Assembly: GCA_000004985.1 (NCBI GenBank)
Contig: GG739600.1
From: Naegleria gruberi
Lineage: Eukaryota
Direction: 5' to 3' (one strand)
Length of the DNA stretch: 1,043 bases
Made by a program: the position numbers and the translations under genes. The first letter of the stretch is position 1, and every line of letters begins with the position of its first letter. Below are positions 1-1,043 of this stretch, one piece after another. A model generated the notes under the pieces. The model saw only the letters and a program-made list of their open reading frames with translations. It was not told where the DNA came from and searched no databases.

Positions 1-58
1 AAAAACATTCAATAGGACTCTCTAACAAAAAAAATTGCTTTATTTTTGTTCGCTTAAT

Positions 59-107
59 AAAACCCTATCAACTCGTCTTAATTGACAAGTGGTAGGGTTT
101 TTTTTTT
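59..107 (+). terminator. Imperfect palindrome, hairpin plus T10 (intrinsic-terminator-like, potentially bidirectional), copy 1
   Basis: Pairing worked out by hand. Inner stem 75-77 pairs with 84-86 (gtc/gac) around loop ttaatt (78-83). One mismatch at c74.a87. Further pairs 73-88, 72-89 and 71-90, with a70 bulged. Then 69-91, 68.92 (G.U), 67-93, 66-94, 65-95, 64-96 and 63-97 (ccc/ggg). A59-A62 can pair with T98-T101. T-run 98-107 is 10 T on + strand. On the - strand the hairpin is followed by uuuuauuauauu. Confidence 0.5.
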
Positions 108-180
108 CGAAAATTTTTCAATCCTGACTTGGATATTTTTTCAAGTTCGGGAAAGTATTTTCTTTTTTTTAATATAATAA
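61..180. repeat. Repeat unit copy 1 (120 bp, reference copy)
   Basis: Reads aaccctatcaactcgtcttaattgacaagtggtagggttttttttttcgaaaatttttcaatcctgacttggatattttttcaagttcgggaaagtattttcttttttttaatataataa. Confidence 0.93.
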
Positions 181-227
181 AACCCTATCAACTCGTCTTA
201 ATTGACAAGTGGTAGGGTTTTTTTTTT
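179..227 (+). terminator. Hairpin plus T10, copy 2 (identical to copy 1)
   Basis: Same sequence as 59-107 shifted by 120 nt. T10 lies at 218-227. Confidence 0.5.
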
Positions 228-300
228 CGAAAATTTTTCAATCCTGACTTGGATATTTTTTCAAGTTCGGGAAAGTATTTTCTTTTTTTTAATATAATAA
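181..300. repeat. Repeat unit copy 2 (120 bp, identical to copy 1)
   Basis: Character-for-character identical to 61-180. Confidence 0.93.
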
Positions 301-346
301 AACCCTATCAACTCGTCTTAATTGACAAGTGGTAGGTTTTTTTTTT
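299..346 (+). terminator. Hairpin plus T10, copy 3 (stem weakened by loss of one G)
   Basis: The ccc arm (303-305) now faces gg (335-336). T10 lies at 337-346. Confidence 0.45.
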
Positions 347-419
347 CGAAAATTTTTCAATCCTGACTTGGATATTTTTTCAAGTTCGGGAAAGTATTTT
401 CTTTTTTTTAATATAATAA
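301..419. repeat. Repeat unit copy 3 (119 bp, single-G deletion in the hairpin 3' arm: ggtagg vs ggtaggg)
   Basis: Identical to copy 1 except GGG becomes GG at 335-336. The T10 tract is retained at 337-346. Confidence 0.9.
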
Positions 420-465
420 AACCCTATCAACTCGTCTTAATTGACAAGTGGTAGGGTTTTTTTTT
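418..465 (+). terminator. Hairpin plus T9, copy 4
   Basis: Stem identical to copy 1. T-run at 457-465 is 9 nt. Confidence 0.45.
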
Positions 466-537
466 CGAAAATTTTTCAATCCTGACTTGGATATTTTTTC
501 ATAATTTGGGGGATATTTTTCTTTTTTAATATAATAA
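420..537. repeat. Repeat unit copy 4 (118 bp, T9 instead of T10, 3' third diverged)
   Basis: Hairpin intact; T-run at 457-465 is 9 nt. The 3' part caagttcgggaaagtattttctttttttt is replaced by cataatttgggggatatttttctttttt, with substitutions and homopolymer length changes. Confidence 0.9.
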
Positions 538-580
538 AACCCTATTAATATACTTTAATTGACAAGTTGTAGGGGTTTTT
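536..580 (+). terminator. Degenerate hairpin plus T5, copy 5
   Basis: aaaaccctat...gtaggggttttt can still pair ccc/ggg with a bulge. Only 5 T follow before atcccg. Confidence 0.25.
538..580. repeat. Truncated, degenerate copy 5 (hairpin region only)
   Basis: aaccctattaatatactttaattgacaagttgtaggggttttt keeps aaaaccc...ttaattgacaag...taggggttttt but has several substitutions and only T5. Homology ends at 580. Confidence 0.8.
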
Positions 581-582
581 AT

Positions 583-613
583 CCCGATTCGAAGGGATTC
601 GAAGGGAAAGCCC
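583..613. repeat. Short 10-bp direct repeat GATTCGAAGG x2 (586-605) with small CCC/GGG hairpins (583-596 and 604-613) at the array's 3' boundary
   Basis: cccGATTCGAAGGGATTCGAAGGgaaagccc. Two palindromic TTCGAA hexamers. ccc583-585 can pair ggg594-596. ggg604-606 can pair ccc611-613 around an aaag loop. Confidence 0.6.
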
Positions 614-888
614 ACAAATAATGTCGGATGAAATAATCGGTCTGTAAACAGTATTTTAAATTACTCCGAAACCCCGTATTTCCCAAAAATGCATTTACTT
701 CCTACTTGCTCCGTTTGGACTACCTCCCGAACGTTTGGCATCAAACAATGTTTATTATAGTGGATTATTTTGTCCGACAATTTGCAGTGCACCTTCGAGT
801 TATTTAAATAATGATTTTTTTATATGACACAAAACCCCCCCTCGTGACTTTAAGTTACCCTTGTTTTGCGCGAAAGACGACAAAAGTG

Positions 889-898
889 AAAAAAAAAA
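889..898. repeat. A10 homopolymer tract
   Basis: gtgaaaaaaaaaattt: ten consecutive A at 889-898. Other tracts are T7 at 815-821 and C7 at 835-841. Confidence 0.9.
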
Positions 899-949
899 TT
901 TCGATTTGATTTTTTACTTTGCGTTAATTAGATAATAATTTTATTAATA

Positions 950-978
950 TTGATCAATGGTCTATATATTAGTATAAT
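950..978 (+). promoter_or_regulatory. Candidate sigma70-type promoter: TTGATC (950-955), 17-nt spacer, TATAAT (973-978)
   Basis: The -35 matches ttgaca at 4 of 6 positions. The -10 is perfect TATAAT and the spacing is the optimal 17 nt. The predicted start near 985-987 is directed rightward out of the window. No ATG or RBS follows within the window. Such motifs also arise by chance in AT-rich DNA. Confidence 0.3.
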
Positions 979-1043
979 ATGTATATATTTCCAGATTTGA
1001 AATAAAAACAAAAATTCAATTTTTCAATCTTTGCGAATTAGAA

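Follow-up and report, generated by a model that had tools for sequence, protein, structure and literature searches.

A tandem spacer array in a Naegleria gruberi-group rDNA plasmid and its conserved hairpin and T-run unit, a candidate transcription-termination or 3′-end module

The window, a stretch of 1,043 nucleotides (nt) of Naegleria gruberi contig GG739600.1, contains a tandem array whose unit carries a pair of hairpins, with a run of T residues after each one. The array lies 3′ of the large-subunit (LSU) ribosomal RNA (rRNA) gene of a circular rDNA plasmid, on the rRNA-sense strand, and its unit combines sequence constraint with compensatory changes in a hairpin stem. We infer that the unit is a transcription-termination or 3′-end module amplified by unequal exchange, with a probability of about one half, because a constrained hairpin and T-run, sense polarity, a position 3′ of the rRNA genes, a short box preceded by a T-rich stretch, and reiteration occur together. 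Termination, any replication-fork barrier activity, and the polymerase involved are treated below as proposals. A preliminary description of the array took it to mark a control region, which is accepted here, and a terminator locus, one of the options that it listed, appears to be the best explanation.

By its sequence relationships, the window is non-ribosomal sequence (NRS, which corresponds to an rDNA intergenic spacer) of a circular extrachromosomal rDNA element (CERE) of about 14 kb from an N. gruberi-group amoeba, because the relatives L001 and L004, the match of a C-terminal fragment of an open reading frame (ORF), and the published layout of the EGB element agree. In particular, a single metagenome scan led to L001 (VFQN01005947.1, 14,434 bp), which is ~91% identical to window positions 56-1043, contains eukaryotic LSU, 5.8S and small-subunit (SSU) rRNA genes, and has a GIR1 branching ribozyme adjoining a His-Cys-box ORF, the arrangement of a Naegleria-type twin-ribozyme group I intron. 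Further elements were reached through homologues of the endonuclease ORF of the spacer. For example, L004 is 99.3% identical to window positions 295-1043 and encodes a protein (P0002) that exactly matches AUH25140.1, "hypothetical protein [Naegleria gruberi]", which, like the L001 intron, serves as a Naegleria marker. The window itself begins with the end of this ORF:

1-15, plus strand: last four codons (K N I Q) and TAG stop of a His-Cys-box homing-endonuclease-like ORF; AUH25140.1 ends ...VNKNIQ.

Two N. gruberi elements have been published, EGB (MG699123) and NEG-M (AB298288). The EGB element is 14,007 bp long, and its NRS of 8.2 kb holds seven families of repeats, 34-371 bp in size, together with an endonuclease-like ORF located 3′ of the 28S gene. 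NEG-M, at 14,128 bp, is longer by 121 bp, close to one array unit.

The array is linked to SSU, 5.8S and LSU genes in L001, L003 and L007. The ends of L003 overlap, and one gene recurs in L002 at a spacing of 13,799 bp, which is consistent with a circle (~13.8 kb for L003). The order of features in L003 is:

L003 1463-3482: SSU gene.
L003 3808-7263: LSU gene.
L003 7861-8916: endonuclease ORF.
L003 from 8958: array.

Array onset in L003 therefore falls 1,695 nt past the LSU end, 42 nt past the ORF stop, and ~6 kb ahead of the SSU start; in the window, it falls ~40 nt past the endonuclease ORF stop. Orientation in L001, L003 and L004 identifies the plus strand of the window as the rRNA-sense strand. 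A placement 3′ of the large rRNA gene, a sense orientation, and reiteration are the arrangement of terminator repeats. Within the window, no open frame exceeds 56 amino acids (aa) under translation table 11 or 91 aa under table 4, and ARAGORN finds no tRNA or tmRNA genes.

Tandem Repeats Finder (TRF) reports a single array at 55-580 with a period of 119-120 nt, 4.4 copies, 95% matches and a score of 922, far exceeding chance expectation. At an offset of 120 nt, positions 55-216 equal 175-336 exactly, giving a perfect stretch of 282 nt (55-336), or 2.35 copies. The preliminary description had reported a perfect 240-bp duplication of copies 1 and 2, which this stretch confirms, within an array at 61-580; those coordinates are correct, but the repeat register begins at 55 and not at 61. 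Its account of the later copies also holds, with a single G deleted from copy 3, a T9 and a diverged 3′ third in copy 4, and a truncated relic as copy 5:

55-580, plus strand (rRNA sense): tandem array of three interior units, a variant penultimate unit and a truncated relic.
301-419 (119 nt): copy 3, with one G of GGG missing at 337.
420-537 (118 nt), plus strand: copy 4, the penultimate edge unit, with T9 for T10 and an altered 3′ third (CATAATTTGGGGGATATTTTTCTTTTTT).
538-580 (43 nt), plus strand: copy 5, the relic, with the outer stem and TTAATTGACAAGT retained.
536-580, plus strand: relic of hairpin A (AAAACCCTATTAATATACTTTAATTGACAAGTTGTAGGGGTTTTT), with the inner stem gone and the T-run down to T5; orthologous at all related loci.

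The 120-nt units stand head to tail with no unique spacers, and the sole CRISPR direct-repeat match scores 15.6 bits against a gathering threshold of 37, in agreement with the earlier rejection of a CRISPR array; the rejection of iterons stands as well. Overall, the array has a low GC content (23-33%) and contains inverted repeats as well as long T tracts.

The sense strand of the unit is predicted to fold into two hairpins with a T-run after each, at -37.5 kcal/mol (z = -6.8), compared to -30.2 kcal/mol for the antisense strand. According to the folding calculations, hairpin A (-16.1 kcal/mol) abuts its T10 without an unpaired tail. The components of the unit are:

59-101, plus strand: hairpin A of copy 1 (AAAACCCTATCA...TGGTAGGGT10), from the fold, with T10 at 98-107 (whole element 59-107).
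179-227, 299-346 (GG, T10) and 418-465 (T9), plus strand: hairpin A and T-run of the other copies.
120-141, plus strand: conserved box AATC-CTGACTTGG-ATATTTTTT of copy 1, again at 240-261, 359-380 and 478-499.
123-151, plus strand: hairpin B of copy 1, with T8 at 163-170, again at 243-290 and 362-409.

The box is preceded by CGAAAATTTTTCAATC, and the whole stretch reads CGAAAATTTTTCAATC-CTGACTTGG-ATATTTTTT in the window and CGAAAATTTTTCAATC-(C/T)(T/C)GACTTGG-A(T/A)ATTTTT in its cross-lineage form; the version of the box in L001 and L010 is AATCTCGACTTGGAAATTTTT. The upper stem of hairpin B is broken in the L001 lineage, and its 3′ arm is absent in L010. Moreover, an AATAAA at 56-61 recurs in every unit. 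As a separate observation, the 12-mer AATTTTTCAATC precedes the box in every unit and has a solo copy (AATTTTTCAATCTTTGCGAATT) at 1018-1029, near the right end of the window.

Two lineages with a 19.6% difference at synonymous sites and ~91% identity in the flanking NRS have no difference at all in the initial 56 nt of the unit, comprising hairpin A, the T10 and CGAAA; over the remainder of the unit, they are ~84% identical. The chance of such an identity is ~5e-6 (0.804^56) or ~0.005 (0.91^56). A more distant element, L010, is 97.5% identical to L003 across the cistron and near flanks and has a single copy of the module at 13264-13353, on the sense strand ~450 nt past the LSU end (nhmmer E = 1.7e-14; BLAST 82.6% over 86 nt against L003). 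Outside the rDNA-contiguous block, this is the strongest match between L003 and L010, the rest of the NRS reaching 65-67% over ~100 nt; the module is the best-conserved NRS island there. L015 and L017 have no significant match to the unit.

Within the stem of hairpin A, L010 has CCCGAGTAG/CTACTCGGG where the window has CCCTATCA/TGGTAGGG. The differences include three compensatory double changes at consecutive stem positions (T-A to G-C, T-G to G-C, and C-G to T-A), and L007 adds one further stem change (T-G to T-A). Of the cells compared, 91% are paired, and sliding the partners lowers this to 33-57%; the observed values were reached by 7 of 500 shuffles. Further, the T10 and the next 33 nt, including TCTCGACTTGGAAATTTTT, are nearly unchanged in L010. 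From the comparison with L010, hairpin A is conserved as a structure and the box as a sequence, and hairpin B is lineage-specific. Wobble pairs are found in both hairpins, as T-G in hairpin A and as U-G at alternate lower-stem positions of hairpin B in the two lineages; because these pairs are workable only in sense-strand RNA, the hairpins would be of RNA rather than DNA type.

One layout is common to all five related assemblies, with N identical interior units followed by a variant penultimate unit and a truncated relic. N is 3 in the window, 1 in L004, 2 in L007, 1 in L002/L003, and 5 in L001. The variant penultimate unit (CATAATTTGGG...) occupies the equivalent position in L001, L002/L003, L004 and L007. 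Both edge copies predate the lineage split, because they are orthologous in two lineages whose neighbouring ORF has a synonymous divergence (dS) of 0.23. The forms CCTGA and CTCGA each occur in every copy of their own lineage; in L007, GGTAGGG is changed to GATAGG(G) in 3 of 3 full copies, the penultimate one included. Because such lineage substitutions are common to all copies of an array, the sequences indicate not progressive decay but concerted evolution, from which the 3′ edge, made up of the variant third and the relic, is exempt.

These comparisons bear on two claims of the preliminary description. The 5′-to-3′ gradient that it described is non-random in relatives and so meaningful, but its account of progressive decay or homogenization at the left end is wrong; the gradient is an edge effect, because the penultimate and truncated copies are orthologous, old, and outside interior homogenization. 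Its warning that the copy number is unreliable or variable was apt, with 1, 1, 2 and 5 interior copies in the related assemblies and 3 here. The differences between assemblies may be real or may result from short-read collapse. CERE repeat-number heterogeneity has been demonstrated by PCR in N. australiensis and is also documented in N. fowleri. Apart from these loci, two Logan contigs end precisely at the array onset (L005, 1-1730; L006, 2044-2072). L006 represents a third lineage, with an ORF 58% identical to that of L001, and an array probably follows in this lineage too, because the contig terminates in ...GTATTTTTCTTTTTTAATACAATAAA, the 3′ end of a unit.

Hairpin and T-run modules also occur in other Naegleria CEREs. 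Further elements (L008, N. andersoni-like; L010; L011; L013) were reached through homologues of the intron endonuclease, and, for each T-run of 6 or more residues, the preceding 48 nt were folded. In four CERE lineages, the top sense-strand sites are within ~2.3 kb 3′ of the 28S gene:

L003, sense: 192, 1736, 1855 and 2309 nt after the LSU end.
L008, sense: 161-809 nt after the LSU end.
L010, sense: 187 and 490 nt after the LSU end.
L011, sense: 1205 nt after the LSU end, then a 126-bp tandem hairpin array.

The antisense strand has 0-4 such sites per element across the whole locus. In many of these hairpins, the arm on the T-run side contains (C)GACTTG. For a box motif, defined as [CTA][GA]ACTT[GT] followed by at least 4 T within 6 nt, the four elements have counts of 2, 9, 5 and 5 in the initial 2.5 kb past the LSU, compared to means of 0.4-0.8 and a maximum of 3-4 in dinucleotide shuffles; across their whole NRS, there are 32 sense and 7 antisense occurrences.

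Other features of this region stand beside the modules. A hairpin (CCAAGYTGATCARCTTGG) followed by T7-T8 is located ~190 nt after the LSU end (L003 ~7400-7470; L010 ~12960-13015), inside a block that is ~97% identical between these distant elements. A palindrome centred on TGATCA lies ~110-130 nt past the LSU end in 4 of 6 aligned elements, with a variant in L011. Both are candidates for the primary processing site of the 3′ external transcribed spacer (ETS) or for the primary termination site. L011 has the same layout with unrelated sequence, in which the LSU gene is followed by a 244-aa spacer ORF that is not a His-Cys homologue, a hairpin with T9, and a 126-bp hairpin array (13271-13586, 14-253); this array is the positional analogue of the N. 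gruberi array.

Each unit is a module of three parts, namely an RNA-type hairpin that is conserved in structure and abuts the T10, the conserved box stretch, and a lineage-specific second hairpin followed by T8. It would close the rDNA transcription unit, or the combined rDNA and endonuclease unit; in N. gruberi, the sense-oriented ORF would ride on a long 3′ read-through transcript. Termination could involve pausing or release at the T-run that follows the hairpin, a factor bound to the GACTTG box, or both, and the module may additionally form a polar replication-fork barrier, by analogy with other rDNAs. Its tandem reiteration would be a lineage-specific outcome of unequal exchange or slippage, in which interior copies are homogenized and vary in number and edge copies are frozen. 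The repeated copies may then act as redundant fail-safe terminators, comparable to the Sal boxes past the mammalian 28S gene.

Known systems resemble the module in part. Mammalian Sal boxes are bound by TTF-I, and the yeast terminator consists of a T-rich element and a Reb1/Nsi1 site. The yeast 3′ ETS contains a stem-loop with an AGNN tetraloop within ~50 nt of the 25S, which is cut by Rnt1 (RNase III), and this cleavage triggers torpedo termination. The Xenopus T3 box, GACTTGC, resembles the box of the unit; this resemblance, like that to the Sal box, is a lead only and is not used as a test. In human rDNA, the repeated Sal-box terminators past the 28S gene are conserved, and the terminator complex of RNA polymerase I (Pol I) acts as a fork barrier. 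Pol I terminators of this kind share with the array a position 3′ of the large rRNA gene, sense polarity, reiteration, a T-rich stretch followed by a short box, and conservation within a fast-evolving spacer. The yeast Rnt1 site shares a sense-strand RNA stem-loop 3′ of the large rRNA, whose coupling to termination is established for yeast; in contrast, 1.7 kb separates the Naegleria hairpin from the large rRNA in N. gruberi, and ~450 nt in L010, and its loop is unrelated. Bacterial intrinsic terminators and the T-run termination of RNA polymerase III share a stable hairpin followed by 8-10 U, and the unit has an abutting run of at least 6 U. However, no site fits the bacterial consensus of a short G+C-rich stem with a loop of 3-8 nt (0 sites), the stem being long and imperfect with a large apical part; moreover, the host of the module is a eukaryotic nucleolar plasmid, where it would be unusual for Pol I to use signals of this kind.

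Several points weigh against termination or 3′-end formation as the function of the unit. The covariation comes from one independent lineage (L010). The enrichment of the box is partly circular, because the regular expression was written after the N. gruberi and L010 sequences had been viewed, and L008 and L011 alone are semi-independent. The array is perhaps not the primary terminator, because the conserved hairpin and T8 sit ~190 nt after the 28S gene. The human Sal-box consensus GGGTCGACCAG is not matched; only TCGAC is common to it and the L001/L010 box, and the window's CTGACTTGG has CTGAC. Canonical Pol I terminators are protein roadblocks, and the dominant part of the Naegleria module, a covarying hairpin that abuts T10, does not belong to them. 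Four lineages have the module 40-100 nt behind a spacer ORF stop, a placement that fits the 3′ end of an ORF transcript equally well. The replication origin of N. gruberi has been mapped to a 2.1-kb NRS fragment. Finally, a literature search for Pol I termination in Naegleria found nothing.

A stronger version of the termination reading is improbable. It would have Naegleria, and perhaps Heterolobosea generally, end rDNA-plasmid transcription with factor-independent, bacterial-like terminators, each an RNA hairpin that compensatory evolution maintains directly before a U8-U10 run, reiterated as a fail-safe array, with the spacer endonuclease gene expressed from the Pol I read-through that they close.

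The best-surviving alternative, though rather unlikely, is that the module serves solely the mRNA of the spacer endonuclease, as its terminator or polyadenylation region, with AATAAA, a hairpin, and a T-rich downstream element. Each unit carries an AATAAA, the first ~40 nt past the stop, and the array directly follows the stop in three ORF lineages of the N. gruberi group; the hairpin and T9 of L011 likewise come after its 244-aa spacer ORF. In L010, the hairpin lies ~100 nt beyond the stop of an inverted His-Cys ORF, and its A-run and T-run flanks could work bidirectionally. The ORF also looks functional from its sequence, because its ratio of nonsynonymous to synonymous divergence (dN/dS) is 0.46-0.56. 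However, L008 has several sense-strand modules right after the 28S gene with no endonuclease ORF in its spacer, AATAAA is expected to be frequent in DNA of 25-30% GC, L010 has its T10 on the rRNA-sense side and a mere T4 on the ORF-sense side, and the wobble pairs suit rRNA-sense RNA. The two explanations are not exclusive, and an mRNA 3′ end would be compatible with rDNA termination if expression of the ORF relies on Pol I read-through.

It is less probable still that the repetition has no function, the array being a neutral spacer minisatellite derived from one ancestral element by slippage or unequal crossing-over. The single copy in L010, the varying number of interior copies among near-identical elements (1 in L004, 2 in L007 and 3 in the window, with 5 in L001), and the documented heterogeneity in N. 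australiensis and N. fowleri are consistent with this explanation. It accounts for the repetition, but not for the unit, with its 56-nt identity at a dS of 0.23, its compensatory changes, and its standing as the best NRS island.

A replication element has a somewhat lower probability again. The array would belong to the one CERE origin or would be solely a fork barrier, acting through DNA cruciforms and T-run unwinding independently of transcription. The mapping of one N. gruberi origin to a 2.1-kb NRS fragment favours this, as do the AT-rich composition, inverted repeats and long T tracts of the array, and Watson-Crick covariation would also fit a DNA cruciform. In contrast, the window contains no match to the yeast-type autonomously replicating sequence consensus (WTTTAYRTTTW); the L004 element has two, one inside the ORF and one in a second, 101-bp array (minus strand, 2868). 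Moreover, on the rRNA-sense strand the hairpin invariably precedes the T-run, the G-T wobbles favour RNA over DNA, copy numbers of 2.4-5.9 are apparently tolerated, and terminators and fork barriers, rather than origins, typically occupy sites just 3′ of rRNA genes.

The prokaryotic frame implicit in the preliminary description is wrong, because the window comes from the spacer of a nucleolar rDNA plasmid in a eukaryote. This genomic context refutes a control locus of prokaryotic, phage or plasmid type, whether a series of tandem small RNAs or terminators, an origin with iterons, or a CRISPR-like locus, and leaves it a negligible probability: the unit superficially resembles an intrinsic terminator, and a permissive E-value search of Rfam gives SpF36, a terminator-like small RNA, as its top match at 32.5 bits against a threshold of 48, but no family reaches its gathering threshold, there are no matches in phage and plasmid collections (BLAST) or in viral contigs and a 185,579-species bacterial and archaeal set (pattern scans), all relatives are on eukaryotic rDNA elements, and unique spacers are lacking.

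As a kind, the array is an rDNA spacer sub-repeat array and already belongs to the catalogued, functionally unannotated CERE repeat families. Tandem repeat families of ~100-170 bp also fill the spacers and flank the rRNA genes of the Entamoeba histolytica rDNA circle, which replicates from multiple sites; that circle is likewise an extrachromosomal, circular, amoebal rDNA with repeat-filled spacers, but the organism and sequences are unrelated and the likeness is by description only. The repeats catalogued for the Naegleria CEREs of EGB, NEG-M and N. fowleri occupy the same molecule and region as the array and, in the accessible literature, are listed with no assigned function. For example, the N. 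fowleri CERE has a 168-bp tandem direct repeat just past the 28S gene, with a ~167-nt insertion at position 6,207, which would be a few hundred nt past the 5,863-bp rDNA region. Relative to the accessible CERE literature, the hairpin, T-run and box module, its single-copy homologue with compensatory changes in another species, and the edge-copy architecture are new. Recent papers describe the sequences that govern CERE rRNA transcription, replication and their conflicts as unknown, and the NRS as too divergent among species for comparative origin hunting. A short module with covariation and a defined strand provides a concrete candidate for a terminator or fork barrier, and would also be useful in designing CERE-based vectors, a transfectable cloned CERE being already available.

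Next to the array, the free-standing endonuclease ORF is intact in at least three diverged lineages (L004 361-1395; L003 7861-8916; L006 986-2029), with a dS of 0.23-0.65 and conserved catalytic and zinc residues. The L001 orthologue is a 355-aa ORF between the LSU gene and the array and matches PF05551, a His-Me/His-Cys endonuclease domain, at 1e-26. The L010 homologue has 31% identity and an inverted orientation. The published annotation of this ORF is 'likely a pseudogene'.

Other repeats of the NRS are found in and beyond the window:

586-607, plus strand: GATTCGAAGG x 2.2 micro-repeat (TRF), at the junction of the array and unique sequence.
622-867, plus strand: dispersed direct NRS repeat, with a second copy ~1.9 kb downstream (L001 3697-3452, 94%; L004 3680-3924, 95.5%).
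L003 9284-9575 / 11204-11496, 10092-10175 / 11965-12048, and 10696-10869 / 12834-12997: duplication pairs.

The junction micro-repeat reads GATCCGAAGGGATTCGAAGGG in L004 and is present as one GATTCGAAG only in the L001 lineage. Its likeness to a minus-strand tRNA T-arm suggested a tRNA fragment, an idea that was dropped because ARAGORN gave no result and L001 has one copy. The repeat at 622-867 belongs to an old NRS segmental duplication of ~2 kb.

A second tandem array (101-102 bp, ~2.5 copies) lies ~1.1 kb past the first (L004 2797-3050; L003 10313-10570); it is A-rich on the sense strand and contains AACCCTA and TTATTGACTTAGC. Homology between the 120-bp and 101-bp arrays is not evident by inspection. 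An origin of the 120-bp array as a spacer-promoter duplication was rejected because, in a self-BLAST of L003, it has no similarity to the region upstream of the 18S gene, where only the ~373-bp repeats recur. The latter are situated 1.2-2.2 kb ahead of the SSU gene (L003 13290-13926 and 1-234), adjoin a stretch of 57-59% GC with (CCAG/CCAA)n microsatellites, and match the published '371 bp' repeats; they are candidates for promoter or enhancer duplications.

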